A program made the translations under genes and the position numbers. Shown here one piece after another: positions 1 to 58,602 of a stretch of DNA of 64,000 bases. A model generated the notes under the pieces. The model ran no database searches. It saw only the letters and a list, made by a program, of their open reading frames with translations, and was not told the DNA's origin. Numbering within the stretch: the first letter of the stretch is position 1; each line of letters starts with the position of its first letter. This DNA comes from an uncultured Acidimicrobiia bacterium (GTDB lineage: Bacteria; Actinomycetota; Acidimicrobiia; Acidimicrobiales; JACDCH01), in assembly GCA_963840695.1 (NCBI GenBank), contig CAWIZW010000012.1:154424-218423 (forward strand). Direction: 5' to 3'.

Positions 1-692
1 GTCGGCACGCTCGACTACGCGGCGGCGAGCTGGCGACAGGTGATGGCCGAGCTCGTCCGCATCCGGTCGATGTGGTTCGGGCTCATGTCGCTGACGATCT
101 CGTCGTTCCTCCTCGGCGCCCTGCGCGTCTGGGGCATCGAGTTCTTCAAGCGGGTGCACGGCCTGTCGGCCACCGAGGCGGGCGTCTCCGCGCCGGTCAT
201 CGGCGCCGGCGCGGCGATCGGGATCGTCGGCGGCGGCGATCGTGGCCGACCGCTCGCTCAAGGCGGGCAACCTCAACGCGCGCGTGCACGTCACCGCCGT
301 TGCGTCGGTCGCTCGCCACCGTCTTCCTGCGTCCCGGCCATCCTCACGACCAACCTCCTCCTGCTCCGCCGTGCTGTTCTTCTTCGGCTCGATGTGCCTG
401 ACCGCGCCGGTCGCGCCGAGCGAGGCGCTGGTGTCCGACGTCGTGCCCGGCGAGCTGCGCGGGCGGGCCGCGTCGGTGCGCTCGGTCGTCCGAGCGCTGT
501 CGCCGCGCTCGCGCCGCTGCTCGTCGGCGCCATCTCCGACGCCCTCGACGACGACCTCCGCATCGCCCTCGCCGTCGTCACGCCGCTCTACGCCGTCGGT
601 GGGCTCGTGATGCTCTTCGCCGCCCGCACCTACCCCGCCGACCTCGCCTTCGCCGCCGCCGAGGCCGAGCGCACCGCACCGGCCGAACCTGA
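1..692 (+). pseudogene. MFS-type transporter, C-terminal portion (5' end outside the window), frame broken several times
   Basis: Hydrophobic helix-rich translation runs in from the window edge and is spread over all three + frames (SMWFGLMSLTISSFLLGALRVWGIEFF; AVLFFFGSMCLTAPVAPSEALVSDVVPGELRGRA; LAPLLVGAISDALDDDLRIALAVVTPLYAVGGLVMLFAARTY). The stop is inferred as TGA 690-692 after one more shift. Confidence 0.55.
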
Positions 693-704
693 CGCGCGTG
701 TCAG
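689..704. promoter_or_regulatory. Palindromic operator-like site 1 (CTGACGcgcgTGTCAG)
   Basis: The left flank is gAAC. The site lies at the MFS gene end and overlaps GTG 698 of the dehydrogenase-aldolase operon. The geometry is GAACCT, 7 nt, GTG. Confidence 0.6.
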
Positions 705-1708
705 ACTCCGCTGCCGTGAAGATCCTCGCCACCGCCCCGCTGCGCGGGCCCGGCCTCGACACGCTGCGCGGCGCTCGGCGAGCTCGTCGAGGAGCCGTGG
801 ATCACCGGGCCGACCTCGCCGATGCGCCTGCTCGGCGAGGACGCACCTCGCCGCCCGGCTCGACCGAGCTCGGCGCCGACGTCGTCATCTGCGAGGCCGA
901 CTCGGTGAAGGGGCCGGTGCTCGACCTCGGCCTCGCCGGCCATCGGCTCGACCCGGGGCGACCCGACCAACGTCGACGTCGCCGGCGCCACCGCCAAGGG
1001 CATCCCCGTGCTGCGGGCGCCGGGCCGCAACGCCGACGGCGTCGCCGAGCTCGCCGTCGCCCTGCTGCTCGCCGTGCACCCGCGGCATCGTCGCCGCCGA
1101 TCGCGACGTGCGCGCCGGGCGAGGTGTTCCGCGACGGCACGATCCCCTACCAGCGCTTCCGGGCGTGGCAGGTCGCGGGCCGGACCGTCGGGCTCGTCGG
1201 GCTCGGCGCCGTCGGGCGCGCGGCCCGGTGGCGCTTCGAGGGCCTCGGCATGCGGGTCCGCGCGCTACGACCCCTTCGCCGCCGACGCCACCGACCCCGA
1301 CCTCGACGAGATGCTCGCGCGAGGTCGACGTCGTGTCGATGCACGCCGCCGTGACGCCCGAGACCCTCGGCCTCATCGGCGCCGGCCGGTTCGAGCGCAT
1401 GCGCGACGGCGCCGTCTTCGTCAACACCGCCCGGGCCGCGCTCCACGACCTCGACGCCCTCACCGCGGCCCTCGGCGTCCGGCCACCTCGCGGCCGCCGG
1501 CGCTCGACCACTTCGAGGGCGAGGCGCTCGCCGCCGACCACCCGCTGGCGGCGATGCCCAACGTCGTGCTGACCCCGCACATCGGCGGCGCCACCTACGA
1601 CACCGAGGCCAACCACACACGCTCGATCGCCGACGGGCTCGCCGCCCTGGTCGGCCGGCGAGCGCGCCGACGAACTGCGTCAACCCGGAGGTGCTCGAGC
1701 GTGGGTGA
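698..1708 (+). pseudogene. D-isomer-specific 2-hydroxyacid dehydrogenase (PGDH-like), multiply frameshifted
   Basis: Fragments lie in three frames: VKILATAPLRGPGLDTL, ELGADVVICEADSVKG, GIPVLRAPGRNADGVAELAVALLLAV, GRTVGLVGLGAVGRAA (GxGxxG), VVSMHAAVTPETLGLIG and VVLTPHIGGATYDTE. The tail is NPEVLERG followed by TGA 1706-1708. The start is GTG 698 or GTG 716. Confidence 0.7.
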
Positions 1709-2366
1709 CTCGAGCCCGACGACGACGAAGGAGGAGGTGCTCGCCACGGCCAAGCAGATGCTGGCCGACGGCCTCGTCGAAGGCACCGCCGGCAACATCT
1801 CCGGCCGCCTCGACGACGACCGGGTGTGCCTCACGCCGTCGTCGGTCGCCTACGAGACGATGACGCTCGACGACCTCGTCGTCGTCGACCTCGACGGCAA
1901 CGTCGTCGAGGGGCACCGCGTCCCCGACCACCGAGAAGGACCTCCACCTCTCGGTGCTGCGCGCCTATCCGGAGCTCGGCGCCGTCATCCACACCCACGC
2001 CGTCTACGCCACGATGTTCGCCCTCGCCCACGAGCCGATCCCCGCCGTGATCGAGGAGGTCGTCGTGTACCTCGGCGGCGACGTCCCGTGCTGCGACTAC
2101 AAGGGCACCGGGACGCGGGAGCTCGGCGACGAGGTCGCCGTCGAAGCTCGCCGACCGCGGCGCGGCGCTGCTCGCCAACCACGGCCTCGTCACGTGCGGC
2201 CCGAACCCGGCCAAGGCCCTGCACAACGCCGCCCTCGCCGAGCGCACGGCCAAGATCGTGTGGGGCGCCCGGGCGGCGGGGCTGGCGATCGTGCCCGCTG
2301 CCGGAGAAGGTCAACGCCGACATGGCCGGCGTGTACCGGTTCATGCGCGAGAACCCCGGGCGGTGA
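1701..2366 (+). pseudogene. Class II aldolase/adducin-family protein, frameshifted
   Basis: Fragments are EEVLATAKQMLADGLVEGTAGNISGRLDDDRVCLTPSSVAYETM, then (other frame) YPELGAVIHTHAVYATMFALAHEPIPAV, then the C-terminal LPEKVNADMAGVYRFMRENPGR. GTG 1701 overlaps the upstream stop. Confidence 0.7.
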
Positions 2367-2376
2367 CGCCGGAAAC

Positions 2377-2391
2377 CTGACACACCGTCAG
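2377..2391. promoter_or_regulatory. Palindromic operator-like site 2 (CTGACAcacCGTCAG, spacer 3 instead of 4)
   Basis: The left flank is AAAC. It is followed directly by TACGCT (2393-2398), then 8 nt, then ATG 2407. Confidence 0.55.
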
Positions 2392-2406
2392 ATACGCTCG
2401 CCGGCC

Positions 2407-3475
2407 ATGCCGTACCGCGTCGTGCAATGGTCGACCGGCCACGTCGGGATGCACGCCCTCCGGGCGATCCTCGACCACCCGGACCTCGAGCTCGTCGGCC
2501 TCTGGGTCCACTCGCCCGACAAGGTCGGGCGCGACGCCGGCGAGCTCGCCGGGCGGGCGCCGTCGGGGTCGCCGCCACCAACGACGTCGACGCCCTGCTC
2601 GACCTCGCCCCCGATGTCGTCTGCTACACGGCCACGGCCGACCTGCGCCCGCACGAGGCGGTCGCCGACATCGCCCGCATCCTCCAGGCCGGGGTCAACG
2701 TCGTGTCGAGCTCGCTCGTGCAGCTGCTGCACCCGCCGACCGCCGACCGATCGCTCGTCGAGCCCGCTCGAGGCCGCGTGCAAGGAGGGCGGCGCCTCCG
2801 TCTTCTTCAACGGCATCGATCCCGGGTTCTGCAACGACCTCCTCCCGCTCGTCCTGTCGGGCGTCAGCCAGCGCATCCGGTCGGTGCGGGTCATGGAGAT
2901 CCTCAACTACGCCACCTACGACCAGGCCGAGGTGCTGTTCGACACCATGGGCTTCGGCCAGGCCCTCGACGCGCAGCCGATGCTCCTGATCCCCGGCATC
3001 CTCGGCTACGCCTGGGGCGGCGCGGTGCAGTCCATCGCCGAGGGGCTCGGCGTCGAGCTGGACGAGATCCGTCGAGATCCACGAGCGGGTGCCGTTCGAC
3101 CGGCCGATCGAGGTCGCCGGGCGCACCGTCGAGCCGGGCACGACCGCCGGTCTCCGCTTCGAGGTCCAGGGCATGGTCCACGGCCGGCCGGTCGTGATCG
3201 TCGAGCACGTGACCCGGCTCCACGACGACGTCGCGCCCGAGTGGCCCGCGCAGGTGGGCCAGGGCCTCTACCGCGTCATCGTCGAGGGCGAGCCGACGAT
3301 CCAGTGCGAGATCTCCTTCTGCGGCGAGGACGGCGACCACAACACCGGCGGCCTGATCGTCACGGCCGCCAAGCTGCTCAACGCCGTCCCGGCCGTCGTG
3401 GCGGCCGCGCCCGGCATGCTGTCGGCGCTCGACCTCCCGCTCGTGTCCGGGAAGAACCTGGTCGAGGGCGACTAA
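2407..3475 (+). pseudogene. NAD(P)H-dependent amine dehydrogenase / DapB-like oxidoreductase family protein, frameshifted
   Basis: MPYRVVQWSTGHVGMHALRAILDHPDLELVGLWVHSPDKVGRDAGEL, VDALLDLAPDVVCYTATADLRP, and GASVFFNGIDPGFCNDLLPLVLSG through to LPLVSGKNLVEGD are distributed over three frames. The stop is TAA 3473-3475. Confidence 0.65.
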
Positions 3476-3476
3476 C

Positions 3477-3492
3477 CTGACGTGAGCGTCAG
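3477..3492. promoter_or_regulatory. Palindromic operator-like site 3 (CTGACGtgagCGTCAG)
   Basis: It forms a perfect 22-bp palindrome AACCTGACGtgagCGTCAGGTT (3474-3495). A TAACCT hexamer is fused to the left arm. Downstream are a GAGGGG Shine-Dalgarno-like run and ATG 3511. Confidence 0.65.
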
Positions 3493-6082: not shown

Positions 6083-6102
6083 CCCGCGACGGGGGGAGGA
6101 TC

Positions 6103-6819
6103 TCAGCCTGCGAGGTAGTCGCCGGCGGCACTGCCGTGCAGCTCGCCGGGCTCGCCGCACCACGCCACGCGGCCCTTGGCGAGCACGTAGCAGAGGTCGG
6201 CCAGCCGGAGCGCATGGGTGAGGTACTGCTCGACGAGGACGATCGTGCGCCCGCCGTCGCGCAGCGCCTCGACCTGCTCGAAGATCTGGGCGACCACGAG
6301 CGGGGCGAGGCCCATCGAGAGCTCGTCGAACAGCACCACCTCCGGCGACCCGACGAGCGAGCGGCAAAGGGCGAGCATCTGCTGCTCGCCGCCGGACAAC
6401 GAGCCGGCCCGCTGTCCGAGCCGCTCCCCGCAGCCGAGGGAACGTCGCGGCGACGGTGTCGAGCCAGGCGTCCCACGGGCCGGCGCCGTCGGCCGATGCG
6501 GAGCGGTGGGCGATCTGGAGGTTCTCCTCGACCGAGAGCCCGGGGAACACGCCGCGGCCCTCGGGCACGAGCACGACGCCGCGCCGGGCGATCGTCGAGG
6601 GCCGGTGGCCGTCGATCCGCCGTCCGTCGAGGCGGATGGCGCCCGAGCGGATCGGCAGCAGGCCGGAGACGGCCCGCAGCGTCGTCGTCTTCCCGGCGCC
6701 GTTCGGCCCGAGCAGGGCGACCACGCTCCCCCGGGCACGGCGAGGGACAGGCCGTGCAGGATCTCGATGCGGCCGTACCCGGCGTGCACGCCTTCGACGG
6801 AGAGCGCGGCCGGCGTCAT
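6103..6819 (-). pseudogene. livF: Branched-chain amino acid ABC transporter ATP-binding protein (LivF type), frameshifted
   Basis: N-terminal [26 protein letters not shown], the Walker A segment [18 protein letters not shown] (other frame), and the signature/Walker B segment SGGEQQMLALCRSLVGSPEVVLFDELSMGL are all present. The ATGA overlap joins it to the livG stop. Confidence 0.75.
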
Positions 6820-7634
6820 CGCGATGCAGGGTCCTCGACGCCGAGGTAGGCGACGCGCACCTTCTCGTCCGACGCGATCTCGGCCGGCGTCCCGGCCGCG
6901 ATGAGACGGCCGAAGTCGAGCACGTAGATCCACGACGACAGCGCCATCACCAGCTCGACGTCGTGCTCGACGAGCAGGATGCCGACGCCCGTCGCGGCCA
7001 CCTCGCGCAGCACCGCCTGGAACGCGGCGGTCTCGCCGCGGTCGAGGCCGCTGCCGGGCTCGTCGAGCAGCAGCACGGTCGGCCTGGTGCACAGCGCCCG
7101 ACCGAGCTCGACCAGTCGGAGGAGGGCGGTGGAGAGCGATCCGGCGACGCGGTCGGCGACCGGTCCGAGGCCGACGAGGTCGATGACCGCCTCGACCTCG
7201 GCCACGACGGTCGGGTCGTCGCGGTGGCGGAGCGCGAAGACCTCGGTGAAGGTGCGTCCGGGGCGAGCGGCCTCGGCGGCGACCTGGAGGTTCTCGAACA
7301 CCGTCATGCCGGTGAAGACCTCGAGCCGCTGGAACGTCCGGGCCATCCCGAGCCGGGCCCGCTGGTGCGTGCCGAGGGTGGTGACGTCGCGGCCGCCGAG
7401 GCGGACCGAACCCGCGTCGGGCGGGCGCAGCCCGGTCAGGGCGTTGAACATCGTCGTCTTGCCGGCGCCGTTCGGGCCGATGAGCGAGGTGACGGCGCCG
7501 GGCGCCACCGCGAGCGACACGTCGTCGACCGCGGTCAGCCCGCCGAAGCGCACGGTGATCGACGTCGCCTCGAGCACCGGGTCGTCACCGGGGGCGGTCC
7601 CGTCAGGACCGGCGGGGAAAGTCGACGTGATCAC
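6816..7634 (-). CDS. livG: Branched-chain amino acid ABC transporter ATP-binding protein (LivG type)
   Basis: The gene is intact. Walker A is [18 protein letters not shown], the signature region is [16 protein letters not shown] and Walker B is LLLDEP. GTG 7634 overlaps the livM stop as GTGA. Confidence 0.8.
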
Positions 7635-10286: not shown

Positions 10287-11066
10287 TCAGCTCCGAAGTG
10301 CGCCGGGCTCATCGAGCCACCGGTTCAGGGCGAGGTTGCGAGCGTTGCGCAGGGCGAAGGTGTGCTGCACCGCCTTCCGGATGCGCCGCTGCGCCCCGGC
10401 GGTGACGGCGACCTGCCGCAACAGGTAGTCGGCGGCGTCGCCGTGGTCGGCCTCGGCATAGGCGTGCACCTTGAAGTTCTCGACCTCGATGCCGTAGTGC
10501 TCGCGCAGGCCCTCGTACATGAGCTTGGCGTAGCCGGTGCTCGCCGCGAACCGCTCACCGGCCCAGCCGAACGCGGCCAGCCCCTCCTCGTAGCTGCGGC
10601 GCATGAAGTAGCACGACGTGAACACGAGTCCGATCGTCTCCGGCAACGGGACGTACTCGAGCAGCTCGTCGTCGGAGATGCCGAGCATCCGTGCCCACTC
10701 GACCTTCATGTCGACGTGGTTGCGGTCACCGGCGAAGCCGGTCTCGTCGGCCAGGTTCTGGCACCAGTGGATGAAGTGCTCCGACGACGCCAGGTCGAGG
10801 GCGTCGGTGTCGGGGCTGTTCGACACGAGCGAGCCGAACTCGGCCGTGTACCAGACCCCGAGGAAGTAGTACTCCTTGCAGAAGCGGCGGAGGTGCTCCT
10901 CGGAGAGCCGGCCGTCGGCGACCGCCTGCCACACCTGGTTGCGCGTCGTGACCGTCCCGGCCTGGACCGCCTCGAGCTGCGCCATGAACGCGTCGACCGG
11001 CAGCGCCTCGGCGCTCGCCGCCCGCCCCCGGACGTCGGCGAACGGCCGGGCCTGCGTAGCTGACAT
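10287..11066 (-). CDS. Heme-oxygenase-like fold (TenA/PqqC superfamily) iron-containing redox enzyme family protein
   Basis: The gene is intact. The helical protein includes RFCKEYYFLGVWYTAEFG and HAYAEADHGDAADYLL. ATG 11066 sits 7 nt after a TAACCT hexamer, which suggests a leaderless transcript. Confidence 0.6.
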   Translation of the reverse strand: MSATQARPFADVRGRAASAEALPVDAFMAQLEAVQAGTVTTRNQVWQAVADGRLSEEHLRRFCKEYYFLGVWYTAEFGSLVSNSPDTDALDLASSEHFIHWCQNLADETGFAGDRNHVDMKVEWARMLGISDDELLEYVPLPETIGLVFTSCYFMRRSYEEGLAAFGWAGERFAASTGYAKLMYEGLREHYGIEVENFKVHAYAEADHGDAADYLLRQVAVTAGAQRRIRKAVQHTFALRNARNLALNRWLDEPGALRS

Positions 11067-11075
11067 GCGTGTCAG
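11060..11075. promoter_or_regulatory. Palindromic operator-like site 4a (CTGACAtgcgTGTCAG)
   Basis: The right flank is GTTA. The site contains the minus-strand ATG 11066. It lies in the divergent gap between the TenA-like/liv operon and the cupredoxin gene. Confidence 0.6.
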
Positions 11076-11086: not shown

Positions 11087-11102
11087 CTGACACGCACGTC
11101 AG
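11087..11102. promoter_or_regulatory. Palindromic operator-like site 4b (CTGACAcgcaCGTCAG)
   Basis: It lies 11 bp from site 4a. In the minus orientation it sits just upstream of the TAACCT -10 candidate for the 11066 gene. Confidence 0.6.
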
Positions 11103-12133: not shown

Positions 12134-12149
12134 CTGACATCGATGTCAG
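12134..12149. promoter_or_regulatory. Palindromic operator-like site 5 (CTGACAtcgaTGTCAG)
   Basis: It is followed by TAGGGG (12151-12156), then 8 nt, then GTG 12165 of the hydantoinase B gene. Confidence 0.65.
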
Positions 12150-20645: not shown

Positions 20646-21777
20646 CTACCGCGGGAGGCCGAGGACGCGGTCGGCCAGGATCGTCTTCTGGATCTCACTG
20701 GTGCCGCCGGCGATCGACGCCGCCCGCGACCACAGCCACTGCCGCTGCCACCGCCCGACGAGGGGTGAGGCGGGGCCGACGACGTCGAGGGCGGCGGCCG
20801 AGAGGTGCTGGGTGGCGTCGGTCCACGCCAACTTGACCAGGCTCGACTCGGGCCCTGGCGCCTCGCCGCCGGCGAGCCGCGTGAGCGTCCTCCAGTTGTG
20901 CAGCCGCAGCAGCCGCACCTCGAGCCACGCCTGGGCCAGGCCATCGGCGACCTCGGTCCGCTCGAGGAGCCCTGCCGCCTCCGCCTCGGCCCACAGGGAA
21001 TCGAGGAAGACCTCGTGGACGACCTGCTCCTTGAACGGGAACGCCGTCCCCCGCTCGTGGGCCAGGGTCGTGCCGGCCACCTGCCACCCGTCGTCGAGGC
21101 CGCCGACGAGGTGGTCGTCGGGCACGAACACGCCGTCGAGGAACACCTCGTTGAACTCCGACTCGCCCGTGATCTGCCGGAGGGGGCGCACCTCGATGCC
21201 GGCGTCCTCCATGTCGACGACGAAGTAGGAGATGCCCGTGCCGGTTCGGGCGAGGCAGATGCCCCAGCGGGCGAACTGGGCGTACGACGTCCACACCTTC
21301 TGGCCGGTGAGCCGCCAGCCTCCGGCGGCGTCCGTCGCGGGTGGCGGCGGTGCGCAGCGACGCCAGATCGGAGCCGGCGTCGGGCTCGCTGAAGAGCTGG
21401 CACCACAGCTCCGACGCGTCGAGGATCGGGCGCAGCCAGCGAGCCTGCTGGTCAGCCGTCCCGTGGGCGAGGAGCGTCGGGCCGGCGAGGTTGATCCCGA
21501 CGCGGTTGACCGGTTGCGGTGCGCCGGCGCGGGCGTACTCGGCGTTGAACAGGGCGACCTGGACGGGACTGGCGCCGCGGCCGCCGTGCTCGACCGGCCA
21601 GTGGATGCCGACCCACCGGGCGCCGGCGAGGCGCGCCTGCCACCGGCGCCCCCAGGCGATCTCGTCGGCTGCCGACGCGAAGGACGCGGGCGACGGGTCG
21701 GCGGCGACGGCGCCAACCAGCCAGTCCCGGGCCTCGGCGGCGAACGCCTCCTCGGCGGGGGTGAACGAGAGGTCCAC
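20646..21777 (-). pseudogene. Acyl-CoA dehydrogenase, frameshifted
   Basis: The N-terminal half (VDLSFTPAEEAF...LFSEPDAGSDLASLRT) and the C-terminal half ([12 protein letters not shown]...IAGGTSEIQKTILADRVLGLPR) are in different frames. GTG 21777 shares 1 nt with the upstream stop. Confidence 0.75.
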
Positions 21778-23480
21778 TACAGGTCCCAGAAGCGCCCGCG
21801 GCCGGCGGCGGTGAGCTCGGCGCGCAGGTCGGCCTCGTCGGCGGCGGAGAAGGGCCGGTACGTCTCGCGGCCCCGGTCCCGGATCCAGAGGGCGTCGGGA
21901 CCGATGAGGTCGCGGCGCCACTTCTGGCGGGCCAGCTCGCGCTTCACGACCTTGTTCGTCCCGGTCGTCGGCAGCTCCGCCGCGACCCGCACATACCGGG
22001 GACGCCACTTCGGCCCGACCTCGTGCTGGGCGTCGAGCCAGCCGGCGAATGCGTCGGGGTCGAAGGCGGCGCCGGGCCGGAGGACGAGCGCCGCCATCAC
22101 CTGGTCGCCGGCGTGCACGTCGGGAACGCCGTAGGCCGCCGCCAGCACGACGTCGGGGTGGCGAGCGAGGGCGTCGTCGATCGGGCCGGCCGGGAAGTTC
22201 TCGCCGTCGACGCGGATCCAGTCGCCCGCTCGCCCCGCGAAGTAGAGCCATCCCTCGGCGGTGACGTAGCCGAGGTCGCCGGACCAGTACCAGCCGCGCC
22301 GCAGGGTCCGGGCCTCGGCCTCGGGGTTGCCGTAGTAGCCCTCGAAGGGCCCGGGGCCGGCCGTGCTCACGATCTCGCCGACGCACTCCTCGGCGTTCAC
22401 GAGCCACCCGGCGTCGTCGAACCGGGCGCGGGGTCGCTCGCTGCCGTCCTCGTCGACGACCTTCACCGTCTCGGTCACCATCCCGACGGCTCCTGCCGGC
22501 ATCGCTGGATCACGCTGCACCGCCACCCCGCCCTCGGTGGCCCCGAAGGCGTCGACCACCTCCACGCCGAAGCGGCGACCGAACGCCTCGACCACCTCGG
22601 GCGACCCTTCGTTGCCGAAGGCGATGCGCAGCGGGTTGTCGGCGTCGTCGGGTTGCACGGGCGTGGCGACGATGTAGGAGAGGGGCTTGCCGGTGTAGTT
22701 GAACCACGTGGCGCCGTAGCGGCGGACGTCGGCGATCCATCCCGAGGCGCTGAACCGGCGAGCGAGGGCGACGGACGCTCCAGCGACGACCGCCGGCAGC
22801 CATCCCACCATGAGGGCGTTCGAGTGGAACAGCGGCATGCACACGTAGCCGACGTCGTCGGGCTGCAGTTCGAGGATCTGGCGCATCCGTTCGCCCGTGG
22901 TCAGCAGGCGCCGCTGGGAGCAGATGACCGCCTTGGGTGCCGACGACGTGCCCGAGGTGAACACCAGCACCCACGTCGTGCCGACGTCCGGCTCGAGCCG
23001 GGGGTCGACGGCCGGGTGGCGGGCGAGCTCGGCGTCGAGGCCGTCGCCGACGACGAGCACCGCAGGAAGGTCGGCGGCGATGGGCTCGAGGAGGTCGAGG
23101 TGCGCGGGCTCGGTCACGACGAGCTGGCAGTCGGTGTGGGTGACGTCACGCAGCAGGTGCTCGTCGCGGCGGGTGTGGTTCAGGCCGACGACGACCGCGC
23201 CGCTGAGCGCGGCTCCGCCGAGGGCGAAGAGGTACCCCGGAACATTGTCGAGGAGCACGGCGACGTGCGGCGGCCGTGCGGGATCGAGCCGGTCGAGGAA
23301 CAACCGGGCCCACCGCGCCGATTCGGCGAGGTACTCGGCGTGGGTCCACCGCTCGTCGCCGGCGCGTACTGCGACACGGCCGGCGATGGCGGGATCGGTG
23401 GCGTTGCGGCGCAGCAGGGCGGCGGCGTTGGCGGCGGGGAGGTCGGCCTGGCCAGGCGCGGGCGCAGTTCGGCTGGCCAT
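21777..23480 (-). CDS. Long-chain acyl-CoA synthetase (AMP-binding, FadD type)
   Basis: The ORF is an intact 567 aa. Motifs are FTSGTSSAPKAV, WYWSGDLGY and TGTNKVVKREL. Confidence 0.85.
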   Translation of the reverse strand: MASRTAPAPGQADLPAANAAALLRRNATDPAIAGRVAVRAGDERWTHAEYLAESARWARLFLDRLDPARPPHVAVLLDNVPGYLFALGGAALSGAVVVGLNHTRRDEHLLRDVTHTDCQLVVTEPAHLDLLEPIAADLPAVLVVGDGLDAELARHPAVDPRLEPDVGTTWVLVFTSGTSSAPKAVICSQRRLLTTGERMRQILELQPDDVGYVCMPLFHSNALMVGWLPAVVAGASVALARRFSASGWIADVRRYGATWFNYTGKPLSYIVATPVQPDDADNPLRIAFGNEGSPEVVEAFGRRFGVEVVDAFGATEGGVAVQRDPAMPAGAVGMVTETVKVVDEDGSERPRARFDDAGWLVNAEECVGEIVSTAGPGPFEGYYGNPEAEARTLRRGWYWSGDLGYVTAEGWLYFAGRAGDWIRVDGENFPAGPIDDALARHPDVVLAAAYGVPDVHAGDQVMAALVLRPGAAFDPDAFAGWLDAQHEVGPKWRPRYVRVAAELPTTGTNKVVKRELARQKWRRDLIGPDALWIRDRGRETYRPFSAADEADLRAELTAAGRGRFWDL

Positions 23481-23498: not shown

Positions 23499-23514
23499 CT
23501 GACATCTGCGTCAG
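23499..23514. promoter_or_regulatory. Palindromic operator-like site 7 (CTGACAtctgCGTCAG)
   Basis: The left flank is TAAC. It lies in the divergent gap between the acyl-CoA synthetase (ATG 23480, -10 candidate TAGGCT on the minus strand) and TetR-2 (TACGCT 23533-23538, then 8 nt, then ATG 23547). Confidence 0.65.
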
Positions 23515-23546: not shown

Positions 23547-24181
23547 ATGCGTGCATCTCCTGCAGCCGCCCGATCCGGCGCGCCGGCCGAGGGGCGGGCG
23601 CTGCGGGCCCGCGGGCAGCGGACCGTCCGCAAGCTCCTCGATGCCGGTGTCACCGTGCTCGCCGCCCGCGGCTACCACGCTGCGCGCGCGTCGACGACAT
23701 CGTCAAGGCGGCGAAGACGTCGCACGGCACCTTCTACCTGTACTTCGCCAACAAGGAGGACCTCGTGCGGGCCCTCGTGCTCGACGTCGGCGAGGCCATG
23801 GCCACCCACGCCGGAACGCTCGGCGCCCTCACCCCCGACGACGCCGGCCGCGCCGCGCTCCACGAGTGGATCCGCGCCTTCGGAGATCTCTACGCCCGGT
23901 ACAGCCCGGTGATCCGCAGCTGGGTCGAAGCCGAGATCGACACCCACGAGTTCGGCCAACTCGGCGCCGACGTCCTCGGGGGGTTCGCCGCCGTCCTCAC
24001 CGACCGCATCGCCGCATCCGATGCCGACGTCGTCGACCCGGCCAACGCCGCCGTCGTCCTCGTCGCCATGATCGAGCGCGGCAACTACTACGCCACCGTC
24101 GGACAGATCCGGGCAGAACCGGACGAACTGGCCGCGTCGCTCGCCCGTTCCGCCCACGCGGCCCTGTTCGGCTCCCGCTGA
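23547..24181 (+). pseudogene. TetR/AcrR family transcriptional regulator (TetR-2), frame broken inside the HTH region
   Basis: RTVRKLLDAGVTVLAARGYHAAR then VDDIVKAAKTSHGTFYLYFANKEDL continues in another frame. The shift maps to the GCGCGCGCG run at 23682-23690, consistent with one extra GC unit. Confidence 0.7.
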
Positions 24182-27438: not shown

Positions 27439-27454
27439 CTGACACGCGTGTCAG
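27439..27454. promoter_or_regulatory. Palindromic operator-like site 8 (CTGACAcgcgTGTCAG)
   Basis: It lies in the divergent gap. It is followed by TACGCT (27456-27461), then 8 nt, then GTG 27470 of the alcohol dehydrogenase. Confidence 0.65.
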
Positions 27455-37177: not shown

Positions 37178-37193
37178 CTGACGATCGTGTCAC
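37178..37193. promoter_or_regulatory. Palindromic operator-like site 9, degenerate (CTGACGatcgTGTCAC)
   Basis: It lies in the divergent gap between the MaoC operon (-) and the kinase-UbiA operon (+). The TGAC-N6-GTCA core is kept, one arm has a mismatch, and the flank is TTC. Confidence 0.45.
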
Positions 37194-41353: not shown

Positions 41354-41369
41354 CTGACACGAGCGTCAG
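41354..41369. promoter_or_regulatory. Palindromic operator-like site 10 (CTGACAcgagCGTCAG)
   Basis: The flanks are AAAC and GT. It lies in a divergent gap and is followed by TAAGGT (41375-41380), then 8 nt, then ATG 41389. Over AACCTGACACGAGCGTCAGG it is identical to site 12. Confidence 0.65.
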
Positions 41370-50081: not shown

Positions 50082-50093
50082 CCGCTGACGGGC

Positions 50094-50295: not shown

Positions 50296-50311
50296 GGGGC
50301 CCAACAGTAAC

Positions 50312-50327
50312 CTGACACGGGTGTCAG
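50312..50327. promoter_or_regulatory. Palindromic operator-like site 11 (CTGACAcgggTGTCAG)
   Basis: It lies in a divergent gap. On the plus strand, TAACCT (50308-13) is fused to the left arm and followed by 7 nt and GTG 50321. On the minus strand, TACTGT (50309-50304) is followed by 8 nt and GTG 50295. Confidence 0.65.
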
Positions 50328-51402: not shown

Positions 51403-51422
51403 GCGACCGTAGCAAACGCCGC

Positions 51423-51456: not shown

Positions 51457-51525
51457 GGACCCATGCGGACGGCCGAGGGGCGTCGGTATCGTTCACTCTA
51501 CGTAGTTGGATGGCTACATAGCGGG

Positions 51526-53898
51526 ATGTCCGGCGATCGGGAACGGCGGTCGAGGAGAGATGGCGAACGGCGGGCAAGCGGCGCAGGGTCCGCCGCGGCA
51601 TCCACATACCCCCCGTCGCCCTCATCGGGCTCGCCGCTCGCCGGCGCCCTCGGCGGGCTCCTCGGCGGGGCCGACCGCCGCGTCGCCGCCGCCATCGCCG
51701 CCTGCGCCTCGCTGCTGACCTCACCGCCGGCCGTCGCCGGCTCGGCCACACGCTCGCCGGCATCCGCACCCGATCCTCGATCCCTTCCTCGGTCTCGGCG
51801 TCGCGACGGTGGTCCTGCTCCTCGGAGCCGGCACCCGGGCCGTCGGGACGGCATCGGCCGAAGCCAACGACGTCCTCACGATCGCCGCTCGCCCTCGCCT
51901 GGTCCAGCGCGGGCATCCTCGGCCTGCTCCGCGAGCGCCTCAGCACCCACGCCCTGGAGCTCGCCCGCGAGGCCGTGTTCGCCGGCGCCGTCGTCGGCAC
52001 CGTCGTCTGGGTCGCGCTCGTCGAGAAGGCGTGGCTCCTGCACCGGTTCACCACCCTCGACGGCATCCTCTCCGTGGTGGCCCTCGGCATCGCGACGGCG
52101 GCGGCCGTGCTCGCGCTGCGGCTCGTGACGACCGTTCCCGGGCCGGTGCGGTGGTTCGCCGCCGCCCCGCTCGTCCTCGTCGTCACCGCCGTCCTCGCCT
52201 GTCGTCGCGCCACGCGGCGGCGCCGGCCGGGCTCGAGCAGGCGGGGCTGGCCGTGGCGTCGCCGCCTGTGCCCTCACCGGCGCCGCCGTCGCCCACGGGG
52301 GCCTCGCGCCGCTGCGCACCGCCGTCGCCGTGCCGCCGCCGCGCATCGGCGTGCCTGCGCCTCGCCATCGGTCCTCGGGACCGTGCTCCTCGTGCCGGCC
52401 GTCACCGTCGGCCGGCTCGTGACCGGCGACGACGATGTCGGTGCCGTCGCTCGTCGGCACCACGGCCGTCCTCTCGCGTCGCCGCCGTCGCCTACCTCGG
52501 CGGCCTCGCCCGCGACTGGGGCCAGCTCGAGCGGCGGGCCCAGCACGACGAGCTCACCGGTCTGCCCAACCGCCGCTACTTCACCGAGCGGCTCGCCGTC
52601 GCCGTCGCCGACGGCGCGACGCCGACGGCACGCGCCCGGCCGTGCTCTTCTGCGACCTCGACCGGTTCAAGGTCGTGAACGACAGCCTCGGCCACGCCGC
52701 CGGCAACCAGCTGCTCGTCGCCGTCGCCCGGCGGCTCGCCGACGCCGTCGCCCGAGACGCCCTCGCCGCCCGGCTCGTCCGGCGACGAGTTCGCCGTGCT
52801 GCTCCCCGATGCCGACGAGGAACACGGCCGTGCACGGTCGCCGCGCGACGTCATCGCCCAGCTCGGCGAGCCCGTCGAGGTGTCCGGCAGCGAGCATGCA
52901 CGTCGAGCGCCAGCATCGGCGTCGCCCGCTACCCGGTCGACGGCACCGATCCCGACGCCCTCCTGCGCGCCGCCGACACCGCGATGTACCGGCGCCAAGG
53001 AGCTCGGCCGGGGCCGGGTCGTGGTGCACAGCCGACGCCTCCGCGACGCGATCGAGGGCCGCTTCGCCCTCGAGACCGACCTGCACAACGCGGTCGAGGA
53101 GTCGCCAGCTCCGGCCTCGTGTACCAGCCGCGGGTCGACCTGGCGAACGGGGCCATCGTCGGCGCCGAGGCGCTGCTGCGGTGGCACCACCCCCGGTTCG
53201 GCAACGGTGCCCCCGTCCCGCTTCATCCCCATCGCCGAGGAGACCGGCCTGATCCGCCGCGTCGGCCGCTCGCCCTGCGGGAGGCGTGCGCGCCAGCTGG
53301 CCGCGTGGGAGCGGTGCCGGCTACCCGAAGCTCGTCGTGTCGGTGAACCTGTCGGCCCGGCAGTTCGAGCTCGGAGTCGGGCCGACACCGTCGCCAGCGT
53401 GCTGCGGGAGACCGGGCGCCGACCCCACCTGGCTCGAGCTCGAGCTCACCGAGAGCCTCGCCCAGCACGACGTCGACGCAGTGTGCGCCGGACGATCGCG
53501 GAGCTCGCCGACATGGGCGTGCGCTGCTCGATCGACGACTTCGGCACCGGCTACTCGGGCCTGTCCTACCTCGGGCGGTTCCCGCTCTACGCCCTCAAGA
53601 TCGACAAGGGGTTCGTGCAGGCGATCGACGCCCGGTCGCGTCCCGCGGCGGCGCGACCCGTCGGCGGTCGTCGCCGCCGTCATCGCGCTCGGCCGCTCCT
53701 TCGGCCTGCGGGTCATCGGCGAGGGCGTCGAGACGCTGGAGCAGCTCGGCGTTCCTCGTCGACAACGGCTGCGACGAGATCCAGGGCTACCTGTTCAGCC
53801 CGCCGGTCGACGTCGAGGCGTTCGAGTCGCTCCTGATGCTCGAGCGGGTGGCCATCCGGGCCCGGTCGCCTGGAGGTGCTGCTGACCGCGATCGGTGA
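51526..53898 (+). pseudogene. Membrane-anchored GGDEF-EAL (diguanylate cyclase / phosphodiesterase) protein, heavily frameshifted
   Basis: It has an N-terminal TM block (VVWVALVEKAWLLHRFTTLDGILSVVALGIATAAAVLAL). GGDEF segments are HDELTGLPNRRYF, LFCDLDRFKVVNDSLGH and GDEFAVLL. EAL segments are YQPRVDL, GAEALLRW, ELTES, DDFGTGYSGLSYL, KIDKGFV and EGVETLEQ. Confidence 0.7.
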
Positions 53899-53999
53899 CG
53901 GCAGGGACGGCCAGGCTCGTCCACCGGCGACGATCATCGACCTCGCAGGGCGGCGGCTACGGCTCCTGGGCTGATCGCCGGTCGCGGTGGCGCGCGACC

Positions 54000-55369
54000 T
54001 CAGCGTTCGACCGCCGCCGCGGTCAGACCGAGGAAGCGGGCGTAGCGCTCGTCGCACGGACCGGCCCAGTCCCGGCTGGGCTCGACGGTGCGGGCCGTGC
54101 GGGCCCAGCGACGGGCGTCGGTCATGTTCGCCTCGAGCCCCGCGGTGCAGCGGGCCACGAAGGCCGCCCCCAGCGCCGCGCCCTCGGGGACGGCGACGAC
54201 GTCGACCGGGAGCCCGGTCGCGTCGGCGAGGGCCTGCACCCACGCCTCGACGCGGCTGCCGCCGCCGGTGGCCACGATGCGGCGCGGCGCCAGCCCGCCG
54301 CCGCGCCGAGGTCGAGGTGGTGGCGCACGACGAAGCCGGCGGCTTCGTACGCGGCTCGACGCAGGTGCGCCGGGCCGTGGGACAGCCCGAGGCCGTGCAG
54401 CGACGCCCGCAGGTCGGTCCGGTGCAGCGGCGTCCGCTCGCCGCGCACGTACGGGCAGCCACACCGGGACGTCACCGGGATCGACGGCGGCGTCGTCGCC
54501 GCCGTCGCCGACCAGGCGCCGCGCCCAGTCGAGGAACAGCCCGCCGGCGTTCGACGGGCCGCCGACCAGGCGCCTGCCCCGGCGCCGTGTGCGGGATCGG
54601 TCCAGAGCCCGGGCACCTCGTGCCACTCGTCGACGACCCCCCAGGTGATCAACGTCGTCCCGCAGATCACCAGCACGTCGCCGGTCGGCGTCGGCGCCGG
54701 CGACCAGCTGCTCGGCGAGGGCGTCGATCGTCCCGCCGGCGACGAGCGCCCCCTCCGCCGGCAGCCCGGCCCGGACCTCGCCCGCCGCCGACGTCCCGCT
54801 GACGACCTCGGGGAGCTGGTCGGGCCGCGCGCCGGCCCCGGCGGCCAGCACCGGCGTCCCACCCCACGAAGTCGAACAGCGGATGGGCGGTCACGGCGGT
54901 CGTCGAGTCGATCGCCCCTCGCCCGCGTGAGGGCGTGGTTGGCGACCGCCTGGGCCGGCCAGAAGCCCGCCGCCTCCGGGCACGCCTCGAGCCAGCCACG
55001 CCAGGAACGCGAGCAGCTCGCCGCTGTCGCCGGGCTGGGTCGTGTCGCGATCCTCCGGCCGCGCCCCGCGGACGTCGCCGTAGAGCAGGCCGGGCCCGAC
55101 GGCCCGACCGTGGGCGTCGACGGCGCCGAGGCACGGCACCATCGCGGCGACGGCCACCGCGTCGACCCGGTGGCGCAGCGGCGCGGCCACCTGACGCAGC
55201 GCCTCGCAGGACCCCGCCTCGCCACGCGTGGTCGATGTCGTGCTCGAAGGCGCCGGGGAACGGGCAGCCCGAGGGCGTGCGGGATCCGGGCCCGCGCCAG
55301 CACGACGCCGTCGTCGTCGGTGGCGACCGCCTTCACCGACGTCGTGCCGATGTCGAGGCCGACCGTCAC
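54000..55369 (-). pseudogene. FGGY-family carbohydrate kinase (xylulokinase-like), heavily frameshifted
   Basis: Fragments are VTVGLDIGTTSVKAVATDDDG, LVICGTTLITWGV, GGPSNAGGLFLDW, PYVRGERTP and IVATGGGSRVEAWVQALADATGLPV. Confidence 0.7.
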
Positions 55370-55377
55370 CCCCGAAC

Positions 55378-55393
55378 CTGACACGAGCGTCAG
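55378..55393. promoter_or_regulatory. Palindromic operator-like site 12 (CTGACAcgagCGTCAG)
   Basis: It lies in a divergent gap. On the plus strand, TACTGT (55396-55401) is followed by 7 nt and ATG 55409. On the minus strand, the TACCCT hexamer (55398-55393) overlaps it, and GTG 55369 lies 8 nt beyond the site. Confidence 0.65.
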
Positions 55394-55408
55394 GGTACTG
55401 TCGCCGCC

Positions 55409-56721
55409 ATGCCGCCGACCTACGACCCGCACTTCCTCGGACCCGAGCCGCGCGACCCGGCGCAGCCCTACTGGGACCCCGAGATGCAGACGATGCCGCG
55501 GGAGGAGCTCGAGGCGCTGCAGCTCGACCGGCTGCGCACCCTCGTCGCCCGGCTCGTCGACCGGGCGAGGCGCCGCTGTTCGGGCGCAAGCTCGCCGACG
55601 CGGGCATCGACGCACCGGAGGCGATCGGGTCGCTCGACGACATCGCCGCCATCCCGCTCACGCGCAAGCAGGAGCTGCGCGACAGCGAGGCCGAGCACGC
55701 CGCCGTTCGGCGACTACCGGTTCACCGACTGGCGAGCGTGCGTTCGCCTCGGCACGTCGACGGGCACGACGGGCACGCCGACGGTCGCCCTCTGGACCCG
55801 CAACGACATCTGGCTCGAGTACGAGTCGGCGGCCCGCAACTGGTGGCGCACGGGTTGGCGCCCGGGCCAGATCGTCACCCACGCCCACCCCGCCTACCTC
55901 TACGGCGGCGGCGCCATGCTGTCGGGCTCGCTCGAGTACTTCGGCATGCTCAACATCTGGGTGGCGCCGCCCGACACCGACGAGATCGCCGAGCAGGGCA
56001 TCCGCATGTGGCAGCGCGTCCGGCCCGACGTCTCCTTCGTCGCCTTCAACCTCAACCGCTTCGTCGAGGTGGCCGCCAAGCTCGGCCTCGACGACATCGG
56101 CCTGCCCGCCTTCCAGTTCCACGGCGTCGGCAAGAAGGGCTTCCCGTTCATGACCTGTGGCGCCGAGGCCTACGCCTACGCCGGCGGGCCCGGGACCGCA
56201 GTGCACCGGCGGCCACATCCACGAGGACTGGGCCATCGTCCAGGCCGTCGACCCCGACACCGGGCTCGAGGTTCCCGAGGGCCAGTGGGGCAACCTCGTC
56301 GTCACCACGCTCGACCGCGACAACGGCCTGCTGCGCTACGACCTGGAGGAGGCGGTGTGCGAGTTCCGCGAGCCGTGCCCGTGCGGCGAGACGACGAAGC
56401 GCATGTTCTGGGGCGGCCGCTTCAAGGACTTCCTCACCGTCCAGGGCCGCTGGTTCAACGTCAACGAGGTCGAGCAGGCGCTCCGGTCGGTCGCGGCCGT
56501 CGCCGCAGCCGACGCTCGAGTACGTCGTCGTGAAGCCGACCGACGCCGACGCGCCGCTGCGCGTCCGCGTCGAGCTCGCCGACGGCGACCCGGCCGTCGT
56601 CGGCGACGAGTGCGCCGCCGTCGTCGAGAACGAGGTCGGCGTCAAGGCCGACGTCGAGGTGCTCGAGCGCGACACGCTCGCCCGCAGCGGCTACAAGGCC
56701 ACCCGCCTCGTCGAGGCCTAG
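55409..56721 (+). pseudogene. Phenylacetate-CoA ligase (PaaK) / coenzyme F390 synthetase-like family protein, frameshifted
   Basis: Fragments are YWDPEMQTMPREELEALQLDRLRTLV, LDDIAAIPLTRKQELR, GTSTGTTGTPT, GGHIHEDWAIVQAVDP and CPCGETTKRM. Confidence 0.7.
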
Positions 56722-56730
56722 ACGGCCGCC

Positions 56731-57615
56731 ATGGGAGCGCTGGACGGCAAGGTGGCCGTCGTCACCGGGGCCGGCCGCGGCATCGGTCGCGGCGAGGCGC
56801 TGGCGCTGGCGGCCGAGGGCGCGGCGGTCGTCGTGAACGACGTCGACCACGACCTCGCCACCGCGGTCGTCGCCGAGATCACCGGGCCGGGCGGCGCGGC
56901 CGTCGCCGACGCGCGCGACGTGGCCGACTGGAGCGGCGCCGCCGCGCTGGTCGACGCCGCCCTGGCGTCGTTCGGACGCCTCGACGTGCTCGTCAACAAC
57001 GCCGGCTTCCTGCGCGACCGGATGAGCTTCTCGATGGACGAGGCCGAGTGGGACGACGTCGTGCGTGTCCACCTCAAGGGCCACTTCGCACCGAGCCGCG
57101 CCGCCGCCGCGCACTGGCGCGAGCGAGCCAAGGCCGGCGACGCGGCCGGCCGGGCCATCGTCAACACGGTGTCGGAGGCCGGCCTCTACGGCGGCACGGG
57201 CCAGGCCAACTACGTGGCCGCCAAGGCCGGGCATCGCCGGCATGACGATCGGCCTGGCGCGGGAGCTCTCGCGCTACGACATCCGGGTCAACGCCATCGC
57301 CCCGCGGGCCCGCACGCGCATGACCGAGGACGTCCTCGGCGACTTCGCCGCGCCACCGCCCGACGGCGGCTTCGACGAGTGGGACCCCGACAACATCGGT
57401 CCGGTCGTGGCCTGGCTCGCGAGCGACGCCGCCGCCGGCGTCACCGGGCAGGTGTTCGTCGTCTTCGGCGGGCGCATCCACCTGTTCGAGGGCTGGACGA
57501 TGGTGTCGGAGATCGAGCAGGGCGAGCGCTGGACGGTCGACGCCGTCGCCGCCCGGGCCGACGAGCTGTTCGGCGAGCGCCGCCGCGGCACCCCCCGATG
57601 GGCTTCGGCCGCTGA
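56731..57615 (+). pseudogene. SDR family oxidoreductase (long, about 290 aa type), two frameshifts
   Basis: Fragments are VAVVTGAGRGIGRGEALALA, LVNNAGF, YVAAKAG then IAGMTIGLARELSRYDIRVNAIAP, and the tail GTPPMGFGR. Confidence 0.8.
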
Positions 57616-57623
57616 CCAACCCC

Positions 57624-57672
57624 GAATTGGCGGTGGCTACCGGCGTATGGAGCGGACAACCACCGCCAATTC
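57624..57672. repeat. REP-like hairpin element, copy B
   Basis: The arms are GAATTGGCGGTGG and CCACCGCCAATTC (13-bp perfect stem), and the right arm ACAACCACCGCCAATTC is shared with copy A. It lies between convergent gene ends (57615 + and 57685 -). Confidence 0.6.
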
Positions 57673-57684
57673 GATTCTCCCGGG

Positions 57685-58593
57685 TCACCAGTCGATGGCG
57701 CTGAGGAAGGTCGAGATGAGGTTGACCGTCGAGCGGGGGTTGTCGCCGGCGGCGAGGTGGCCGGCCTTCTCGACGGTGGCGAGCCGGGCGTCGGTCATCA
57801 GGTCGACGAGCTCGGTGGCGGTGTCGCCCGAGAGCACGTCGGAGGCGCCGCCGCGCAACACGAGGGTCGGGCACCGGATGGCCCGGGCGTCGTCCTCGAC
57901 CCCGGCCATCACGCCGGCGACCTCGGGCACCTCCCCCCCGGCCTCCCCGACGCGACGGTTCCAGCTCCGGCCCATCCCGTGCTTCCAGATCCACCGGCCG
58001 TCGGCCCGCTGGCGGAGGTTGCGCGTCAGCGACTCGGGCCGGAACGACTTGCGGTAGGGCAGGTACTCGCCGATGAAGGCGGCGGCGTCGTCGAGGCTGG
58101 CGAAGCTCTCGTGGGCGCGCATGAACTCGATGATCTTCATGACGCCTTCGGGCTCGACCTTGTGGCCGATGTCGATCAGCACGAGCCCGGCCATGCGATC
58201 GGGATGGGCGGCCCCGAGGGCGAGCGACACCAGCCCGCCCAGCGACGCCCCCACGAAGACGGCCCGGTCGACGCCGAACTCGTCGAGGAACGGGACGGTC
58301 GCGGCGGCCAGCACCGTCCGGTCCCACATCCCCGGCGGCAGCGGATCCGAGTCGCCGTGGTTGGGCAGGTCCGGCGCCAGCAGGTGGTAGCGCCCGCGCA
58401 GGGAGGCGCCCAGCTCCTCGAACATGTAGGCCGTCTGGCCGCCGCCGTGGAGGCACAGGACGGCGGGCGCCGTCGAGCGACCCCACTCGAGGTAGTGCAC
58501 CTGCCGGTCGCCCTCGACGACGACGAAGCCGCTGCGCCCGTCGATCGGGCAGTCGTGGCGGGGAACGACGTCGTCGGGATCGATAGCTGACAC
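57685..58593 (-). CDS. Alpha/beta hydrolase fold protein
   Basis: The ORF is an intact 302 aa. Segments are LCLHGGGQTAYMF, the nucleophile elbow VGASLGG, and AGHLAAGDNP. The only start candidate, GTG 58593, lies inside operator site 13. Confidence 0.8.
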   Translation of the reverse strand: MSAIDPDDVVPRHDCPIDGRSGFVVVEGDRQVHYLEWGRSTAPAVLCLHGGGQTAYMFEELGASLRGRYHLLAPDLPNHGDSDPLPPGMWDRTVLAAATVPFLDEFGVDRAVFVGASLGGLVSLALGAAHPDRMAGLVLIDIGHKVEPEGVMKIIEFMRAHESFASLDDAAAFIGEYLPYRKSFRPESLTRNLRQRADGRWIWKHGMGRSWNRRVGEAGGEVPEVAGVMAGVEDDARAIRCPTLVLRGGASDVLSGDTATELVDLMTDARLATVEKAGHLAAGDNPRSTVNLISTFLSAIDW

Positions 58594-58602
58594 GCGTGTC
58601 AG
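58587..58602. promoter_or_regulatory. Palindromic operator-like site 13 (CTGACAcgcgTGTCAG)
   Basis: It lies in the divergent gap between the alpha/beta hydrolase (-) and the acyl-CoA synthetase (+, ATG 58614). The left flank is TAG, as at site 4a. Confidence 0.65.

Follow-up and report, generated by a model that had tools for sequence, protein, structure and literature searches.

It is well known that TetR repressors can control beta-oxidation genes through palindromic operators, and some proteins of this kind, namely Bacillus FadR, KstR2 and FasR, are released from DNA by an acyl-CoA or CoA thioester. The predicted system described here works like KstR, KstR2 and the TetR-type FadR, and is a member of none of those families. 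It was found in a stretch of 64,000 nucleotides of DNA from an uncultured Acidimicrobiia bacterium (GenBank assembly GCA_963840695.1, contig CAWIZW010000012.1, positions 154,424 to 218,423), which as a whole is called the window below. The system consists of a short palindrome, CTGACR-N4-YGTCAG, repeated at gene boundaries, and of a candidate regulator, TetR-2, encoded beside one of the copies. Soils, freshwater, oceans and wastewater all harbour abundant Acidimicrobiia, nearly all of which are uncultured; we found no characterised transcription factor for this class. A previous reading of the window, made by a model from the letters alone (the sequence-only reading), had proposed that the palindromes are operators of one large, uncharacterised catabolic regulon.

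KstR and KstR2 of Mycobacterium and Rhodococcus offer the comparison that was drawn in that reading, which spoke of a KstR-type regulon layout with a different operator. The layout is indeed alike: both are autoregulated TetR repressors (autoregulation is predicted for TetR-2), and both act through a short palindromic operator found in many, often divergent, gaps of a dense cluster of FadD, ACAD (acyl-CoA dehydrogenase), hydratase and thiolase-like genes, with a CoA thioester as the inducer in the case of KstR2, as would be the case here. However, their hosts are Mycobacteriales and not Acidimicrobiia, neither the KstR operator, TnnAACnnGTTnnA, nor the KstR2 operator, AnCAAGnnCTTGnT, has any match in the window (0 each), and TetR-2 scores 19.1 bits against a KstR cut-off of 280 (NCBIfam NF033703). 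Bacillus FadR (YsiA; PDB 3whb/3whc and 5gpa/5gpc) is a TetR-family repressor of beta-oxidation operons that responds to long-chain acyl-CoA, a ligand which might also suit TetR-2. It is the best match to TetR-2 in the helix-turn-helix (HTH) sequence (E = 2e-9, first among the solved structures) and among the best in fold, and its operator is likewise a 16-bp inverted repeat (PMC5397183). Still, the FadR box, ATGAATGA...TCATTCAT (PMC5397183), differs from the TGACR-N4-YGTCA found here, the sequence similarity of TetR-2 to solved structures is confined to the HTH, and its score of 49.8 bits against a cut-off of 200 (NCBIfam NF053878) covers the HTH only. In fact, none of the curated NCBIfam cut-offs is reached by TetR-2.

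Three further regulators deserve mention. BkaR/Fad35R (Rv2506) of mycobacteria is an autoregulated TetR repressor divergent from a fadD gene, and its operator has a 16-bp palindromic core with a 4-nt centre, present in two copies in one divergent gap (PMC3920632); yet this core, GTTA-N-T-N4-A-N-TAAC (PMC3920632), differs from our consensus at every specified position, and the regulon is small (10-12 genes) and serves branched-chain keto-acid metabolism. The binding sites of SAV151, a TetR protein of Streptomyces avermitilis, contain CTGACA...TGTCAG inverted half-sites (table 2 of PMC10933834), but these lie 8-10 nt apart instead of 4, and SAV151 is a local regulator of a few adjacent genes. 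Cmr (Rv1675c) of M. tuberculosis binds a 16-bp palindrome, TGTCAGCGTGCTGACA, made of the same two hexamers (PMC5499769), but in the order TGTCAG...CTGACA and not CTGACA...TGTCAG; it belongs to the CRP/FNR family and controls a different regulon (dosR, redox). A Cmr-like system would have the palindrome TGTCA-N6-TGACA and a regulator with a cyclic nucleotide monophosphate (cNMP)-binding domain; the half-sites here are everted relative to that order, and no such domain was found in the window. In text searches of open-access papers, only SAV151, with another spacing, and Cmr, with the everted order, shared the hexamers, and no bacterial regulator with the operator described here was found. As the operators of KstR, KstR2, Bacillus FadR, BkaR and Cmr all differ from it, the previous statement that the motif cannot be assigned to any characterised regulator stands.

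The exact pattern, CTGACRNNNNYGTCAG (CTGACR-N4-YGTCAG), has 11 matches in the window (Table 1), with 0.04 expected from dinucleotide-preserving shuffles, and this number was reached by 0 of 100 shuffles. A relaxed core, TGACRNNNNYGTCA (TGACR-N4-YGTCA), has 12 matches versus 0.17 expected, the one added being that at 37178. The recurrence of the palindrome, as claimed before, is thus confirmed, and the same can be said of the remark that no complete copy lies deep inside a gene, as no core copy was found within genes of the window. After removing the true sites, 16-mers with at most two mismatches number 21 in the window versus 15.7 expected, which is chance level, and the motif family is therefore sharply defined; no weaker additional sites are claimed. 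With the site at 2377, which has a 3-nt spacer, our site set comprises 13 members in the window; site counts given here and below cover the window and related loci of at most 20 kb each. The previous list of 14 copies thus survives in its greater part, with 2377 kept as a spacer variant, while 18721 had to be dropped: TTGACC-N4-GGTCAA shares the geometry of the motif, yet it departs from it at the R/Y positions, and it is the only example of a pattern that occurs at chance level. The opposite happened to 37178. It had been called degenerate, but it is a full match to the conserved core, and since the outer C/G is a variable position, differing by clade (GTGACA...TGTCGG and similar) around a constant part TGACR-N4-YGTC, this site is a full member. 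The arms had also been described as extending outwards, and this extension, (a)AC...G(tt), is real but weak (0.2-0.4 bits over 81 sites). Flank information over the same 81 sites is low, at 0.05-0.4 bits, giving a weak consensus (t/a)aC-CTGACR-yNNr-YGTCAG-Gt(a/t), and past about 3 nt the flanks of the window sites are unrelated, with no extended repeat in common.

To place the sites relative to genes, a gene map was needed, and the standard list of open reading frames (ORFs) was unusable (201 overlapping ORFs at 73% GC overall, with 70-78% along the window), while simple filters on GC content at third codon positions truncated genes. The map used here combines a Viterbi path through the GC phase, stitched translations and Pfam domains. 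The phase of third-codon-position GC jumps every few hundred bases inside many genes, and about 79 frame switches were counted within genes, or roughly one indel in every 800 bp (for example in 1-3100, 6100-9700, 14900-15400, 30900-31600, 34700-36700 and 45800-57300). As the stitched translations yield full-length Pfam domains, such as Aldolase_II positions 1-182 of 183 across three frames, the window must contain many indels; most likely it is an unpolished, error-prone long-read metagenome assembly, and extensive pseudogenisation is less likely. The most degraded or error-rich stretches are 48400-50250 and 51400-54000, in which no coherent reading frame could be traced and only fragments of ACAD and GGDEF-EAL proteins are recognisable.

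On this Pfam-anchored map every site is intergenic and all 13 lie at gene 5' boundaries, in agreement with the placement reported earlier. The nearest plausible start is about 10-50 nt from the site, and some starts overlap it (start-codon analysis); the true start of the FGGY gene, for instance, is at about 55370, just left of the site at 55378. Nine sites lie in eight divergent gaps and four in tandem gaps, and none was found in any of the approximately eleven convergent gaps on the map. The claim that a copy stands in front of nearly every transcription unit was somewhat overstated, however. Sites do stand at unit 5' ends, but about 19 of some 27 such ends (about two thirds) adjoin one, and the gap between SDR and TetR-1, the TetR-3 promoter, the gap between RPE65 and TetR-4 and the SnoaL gap are without a site.

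A TAnnnT hexamer is present within 14 nt of 10 of the 13 sites versus 1.6% of random positions, so that the association with -10 boxes, noticed before, holds. Two arrangements can be distinguished. At 2377, 27439, 55378 and 41354 the hexamer follows 1-5 nt after the operator and the start codon comes 7-9 nt later, with the operator centred about -21 to -25 relative to the predicted start. At 3477, 50312 and (on the minus strand) 11060, TAACCT is fused to the left arm and the operator covers the predicted transcription start. The order operator, 1-2 nt, TACGCT or TACTGT, 6-10 nt, ATG or GTG recurs at 2393-2409, 27456-27472 and 55396-55411 and on metagenome contigs L086-L098, which would imply that leaderless mRNAs are common in these Acidimicrobiia, with TAnnnT as the -10 hexamer.

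Conservation was assessed in 84 fetched loci with TetR-2 relatives (1.35 Mb), 83 of them non-duplicate (1.34 Mb). Exact sites number 72 in the 84 loci, and the core with a 4-nt spacer is present in 159 copies in the 83 loci, versus only 1-8 copies for each of the other spacers from 0 to 8. In L001, L002 and L004, whose TetR orthologues are 61-72% identical, the neighbourhood is kept (hyuB/A, ACAD-FadD divergent from TetR, and AMP-ligase divergent from ADH), and exact sites stand at the orthologous promoters, 11 of 11 between independently called genes. When flanks of core sites were compared with the window proteins by blastx, sites were found just upstream of orthologues of FadD, ACAD, MaoC, AMP-ligase/ADH, hyuB and the TenA-like gene, as well as of TetR, and also of more distant SBP (about 30% identical) and SDR homologues. 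The site is kept upstream of hyuB in L001, L002 and L069, between AMP-ligase and ADH in L002, L004, L005, L008, L017 and L052, at 27-35 nt upstream of TenA-like orthologues in L033, L036 and L075, and at MaoC orthologues in more than 40 loci. Conserved regulon membership extends to metagenome-assembled genomes (MAGs) with a TetR only 47-72% identical, and covers dozens of Acidimicrobiia MAGs. In an alignment of the FadD-TetR gap from 8 genomes the sole invariant block is CCTGAC...GTCA, the other intergenic DNA having diverged. Conservation at orthologous operons had been suggested as a check in the sequence-only reading, and it is seen at hyuB, FadD, MaoC, AMP-ligase/ADH and the TenA-like gene. 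Taken with the enrichment, the restriction to promoter gaps and the lack of KstR and KstR2 boxes or of any described match, it supports the proposal of one uncharacterised catabolic regulon. A few short contigs in the set (L013, L043, L064, L072 and L025) carry an Acidimicrobiia-type TetR and the motif, and the MAGs that contain them bear the labels Burkholderiales, Bifidobacteriaceae, Bifidobacterium breve or Frankiaceae; mis-binning is the probable cause.

There are four TetR genes in the window, and a site is present in its own promoter only in the case of TetR-2 (23548-24181), the other three having no core site. In the related loci, the best palindrome within -260 to +60 of the TetR orthologue has at most two mismatches in 73 of 83 cases and at most one in 45 of 83, whereas chance would give the former in about 6 of 83, as estimated from the mismatch scan of the window. 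The divergent partner changes between clades (FadD, MaoC, SDR or an acyl-CoA synthetase) and TetR is the constant element. Of the 6 least similar loci (at most 49% identity, probable paralogues), 4 lack a site, which speaks for specificity. TetR-2 had been named as the regulator to be tried first, and this choice holds up, given that the arrangement is conserved class-wide. When stitched to 210 aa, TetR-2 is 98% identical to metagenome proteins and has thousands of relatives, for which every informative source name is Acidimicrobiia or Acidimicrobiales; in a set of species-representative genomes 575 stretches encode a relative, with at least 575 species-level genomes carrying one, and the best 80 of the 575 are nearly all from Acidimicrobiia MAGs. 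The TetR_N HTH (PF00440) is matched by TetR-2 and all homologues. The HTH with its recognition helix (AKTSHGTFYLYF) and an Arg-rich N-terminal arm are invariant in 16 homologues of 55-98% identity, and this invariance parallels that of the operator core. An AlphaFold (AF2) model of TetR-2 has 9 helices with a pLDDT (predicted local distance difference test) of 87, as expected of a TetR protein whose C-terminal ligand domain is all-helical, and its top fold matches are TetR structures, namely Bacillus FadR with stearoyl-CoA, EthR, FasR with C20-CoA, and PfmR. These matches support, without being specific to it, the idea that TetR-2 may be a ligand-binding TetR of the lipid-sensing sort. The Arg-rich arm itself reads R-x-G-x-P-A-x-G-R-x-L-R-A-R-G (residues 9-23, at 23572-23616) and precedes helix 1 in 16 of 16 homologues; the minor groove, or the CG-rich spacer in the centre of the operator, might be what it contacts.

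The explanation that we consider probable is that the palindromes are operators of one factor, most likely the autoregulated TetR-2 and its Acidimicrobiia orthologues, which would repress a regulon of acyl-CoA and lipid catabolism with an acyl-CoA as the probable inducer. In this scenario, a dimer would recognise two TGAC(A/G) half-sites 4 bp apart, rarely 3 bp. The operator would either fill the spacer just upstream of the TAnnnT -10 box or overlap the -10 hexamer and the transcription start; because of this position, the bound protein would exclude RNA polymerase, and one or both divergent operons would be repressed, many of the promoters being presumably leaderless. An acyl-CoA made by the regulon's own FadD enzymes might then bind the C-terminal domain and release the repressor. 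Over-representation, confinement to promoter gaps, conservation at orthologous promoters and conserved linkage to the TetR gene are observed; that TetR-2 is the protein which binds, that it represses and that an acyl-CoA is its ligand are inferred from them and from the fold. The predicted regulon includes acyl-CoA synthetases, acyl-CoA dehydrogenases, crotonase- and MaoC-type hydratases, thiolase-like/DUF35 proteins and SDRs, and also a hydantoinase A/B pair, an ADH and a Liv-type ABC uptake system. The window showed no genes for steroid ring opening, and the steroid or isoprenoid substrates named in the sequence-only reading are hypothetical. It is conceivable, although we would put it forward only tentatively, that the TetR-2 family is the class-wide master regulator of lipid catabolism in Acidimicrobiia, that the operator marks a large unrecognised pathway for a complex lipid, and that recognition is flexible, in an unusual way, between 4-nt and 3-nt spacers. 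On this tentative view, the ACAD pairs, the MaoC, DUF35 and Ltp-type thiolases, the hydantoinase-like carboxylase and the Liv-type uptake would point to substrates with branched, alicyclic or steroid-like side chains, as opposed to plain fatty acids.

Several observations weigh against TetR-2 as the repressor of these genes. Its link with the motif is purely comparative, and 10 of the 83 orthologous loci, some at 57-59% identity, are without a good site in the scanned region. The frame of TetR-2 in the window is broken near 23680, after the first helix, by two extra bases in a GC-repeat (23674-23690) relative to a 96.5%-identical Joint Genome Institute (JGI) metagenome contig (L085), and this frameshift may stem from faulty sequencing or may truly inactivate the gene. 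Fold matches such as those above (E ~1e-5, 20-24% identity) are generic for TetR proteins, which makes the acyl-CoA ligand a guess, and one dimer accepting both 4-nt and 3-nt spacers would be unusual. Finally, FadD, MaoC and SDR, the neighbours of TetR-2, are themselves regulon members, which confounds the linkage, as control of these genes by a different, unlinked regulator would equally call for a site in the shared gap.

This last point opens the way to another explanation, namely that the sites are genuine operators of a lipid regulon, but are bound by a regulator encoded elsewhere, either another TetR paralogue or a protein of CRP/FNR type, with TetR-2 being merely one of the regulated genes. 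The TetR-2 orthologues without a nearby site would fit this idea, as would the FNR-box geometry of the 5-4-5 core; moreover, both SAV151 (PMC10933834), a TetR using CTGACA/TGTCAG at another spacing, and Cmr (PMC5499769), a CRP/FNR protein, use these hexamers, and therefore the half-sites are not unique to one protein. We nevertheless find it unlikely, as TetR is the one constant beside the site in those 73 of 83 loci while its partner gene changes, and as an invariant HTH of the TetR family parallels an invariant operator core. The CRP-type version meets additional difficulties: no cNMP-binding or CRP-type domain was found by Pfam in stitched translations of the whole window, the Cmr site has its half-sites in the opposite order, and the operator centres at about -21 to -25 from the predicted start, or over -10/+1, are positions of a repressor and not of a class I or II activator.

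That the palindromes act as nucleic-acid hairpins, be it as repetitive extragenic palindromic (REP)-like repeats, terminators or stem-loops of 5' untranslated regions affecting mRNA stability or translation, seems very improbable and this reading was rejected: a stem of 6-9 bp closed by a 4-nt loop is possible at each site and some 36-nt contexts fold better than shuffles (z down to -3.4), but such energies (-9 to -15 kcal/mol, z -0.8 to -3.4) are ordinary for DNA of 73% GC, many sites lie upstream of the predicted -10 of leaderless genes and would thus be untranscribed, none lies in a convergent (3'-3') gap or is followed by a T-run, the flanks hold no common extended repeat, Rfam gave no match, and the sequence itself is conserved, not merely its pairing. 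In 171 sites, the inner R/Y position of one arm varies independently of that of the other (AT 43, GC 49 and mixed 79, versus 39.8, 45.8 and 85.4 expected; p = 0.33), and therefore complementarity is not selected, which favours recognition by a protein over a hairpin.

The site at 2377, which has the same arms around a 3-nt spacer, is unique in the window (0.01 expected), where no copies with a 5-nt spacer were found. In an assembly so rich in indels, a 1-bp deletion was an obvious candidate explanation. It was ruled out, since the identical 15-bp site is present on an independent metagenome contig (L086) before the start of the orthologous gene (MPHRVVQW vs MPYRVVQW), and since the 3-nt spacer recurs on other high-GC contigs and in 3-4 related loci; the variant is thus genuine. 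When metagenome contigs were scanned for CCTGACA-N(3-6)-GTCAGATACGCT, 17 were returned, with the 3-nt spacer in seven high-GC ones, including L086. The architecture GTCAG-A-TACGCT recurs on these contigs, and in most of the high-GC matches a start codon stands 6-10 nt after TACGCT, which indicates probable leaderless promoters. Of the 4 sites with a 3-nt spacer in the related loci, 3 keep both the CTGAC and the GTCAG arm complete, and two lie just downstream of the TetR gene, where other genomes carry a 4-nt site. To judge from these comparisons, the 3-nt-spacer variant is real and rare.

An operator together with a candidate regulator provides a sequence handle that predicts co-regulated genes in hundreds of MAGs, and by which a lipid/acyl-CoA pathway may be defined without cultivation. 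Better annotation of many 'hypothetical' operons should become possible, and a simple repressor/operator pair may be of use in synthetic biology of high-GC organisms. General concepts are not changed by this; the value lies in annotating an uncultured class, and the conceptual interest is moderate.

Table 1. Predicted operators in the window, and the two genes of the FadD/TetR-2 gap.
Feature	Position	Strand	Match	Sequence	Context
Predicted operator	689..704		exact	CTGACGcgcgTGTCAG	11 nt upstream of GTG (716), 2-hydroxyacid dehydrogenase-aldolase operon
Predicted operator variant	2377..2391		3-nt spacer	CTGACAcacCGTCAG	followed by -10 hexamer TACGCT (2393) and ATG 2407 of DAP-dehydrogenase-like gene; leaderless layout
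Predicted operator	3477..3492		exact	CTGACGtgagCGTCAG	fused to TAACCT (3473); upstream of SBP (Peripla_BP_6)-kinase operon, ATG 3511
Predicted operator	11060..11075		exact	CTGACAtgcgTGTCAG	overlaps start codon (11066, minus strand) and TAACCT -10 of TenA-like/liv operon
Predicted operator	11087..11102		exact	CTGACAcgcaCGTCAG	same divergent gap as 11060, 27 bp centre to centre; faces plus-strand gene at 11194
Predicted operator	12134..12149		exact	CTGACAtcgaTGTCAG	15 nt upstream of hyuB GTG (12165); hexamer TATCGT at 12126
Predicted operator	23499..23514		exact	CTGACAtctgCGTCAG	67-bp divergent gap between FadD (ATG 23480, minus strand) and TetR-2 (ATG 23548)
Predicted operator	27439..27454		exact	CTGACAcgcgTGTCAG	~40-55-bp gap between AMP-ligase (minus strand; start 27429 or 27414) and ADH (GTG 27470); -10 hexamer TACGCT 27456
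Predicted operator	37178..37193		core	CTGACGatcgTGTCAC	upstream of MaoC-crotonase-thiolase operon (minus strand); divergent from kinase-UbiA genes
Predicted operator	41354..41369		exact	CTGACAcgagCGTCAG	between ACAD pair (minus strand) and enoyl-CoA hydratase (plus strand); hexamer TAAGGT 41375
Predicted operator	50312..50327		exact	CTGACAcgggTGTCAG	fused to TAACCT (50308); between ACAD-DUF35-Ltp operon (minus strand) and amidohydrolase (ATG ~50334)
Predicted operator	55378..55393		exact	CTGACAcgagCGTCAG	between FGGY kinase (minus strand) and PaaK-like gene (ATG 55409); hexamer TACTGT 55396
Predicted operator	58587..58602		exact	CTGACAcgcgTGTCAG	between alpha/beta hydrolase (minus strand) and acyl-CoA synthetase (ATG 58614)
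FadD-type acyl-CoA synthetase	21777..23480	-			first gene of FadD-ACAD operon, divergent from TetR-2; conserved regulon member
TetR-2, candidate cognate repressor	23548..24181	+			210 aa when stitched; 2-nt insertion near 23680

Other palindromes of the window were noticed as well. A weak second one, CCGACGcccaCGTCAA (2 mismatches, 50337-50352), lies 25 bp downstream of the operator at 50312, where the amidohydrolase gene has just begun; it may be an auxiliary site of half strength or a product of chance. At the position of the dropped copy, 18720-18737 is a perfect 7-4-7 palindrome, CTTGACC-gact-GGTCAAG, between the genes of a luciferase-like monooxygenase and a metallo-beta-lactamase and downstream of TetR-1. 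It has the geometry of the main motif with another inner base, and another TetR, possibly TetR-1, may bind there. A region in the middle of the cluster, 42305-44648, holds a GluQ-type tRNA-synthetase paralogue and an RPE65-type carotenoid oxygenase gene, divergent from TetR-4 and without an operator, and both genes are apparently outside the regulon. Finally, the DNA of 73% GC contains a perfect AT-rich palindrome, TGAATGA-C-TCATTCA (33831-33845), which is present once in the window, 15 nt upstream of the TetR-3 start (33816, minus strand). It has the same half-sites as the Bacillus FadR box, with a spacing of 1 nt and not 4, and is probably the operator of TetR-3.

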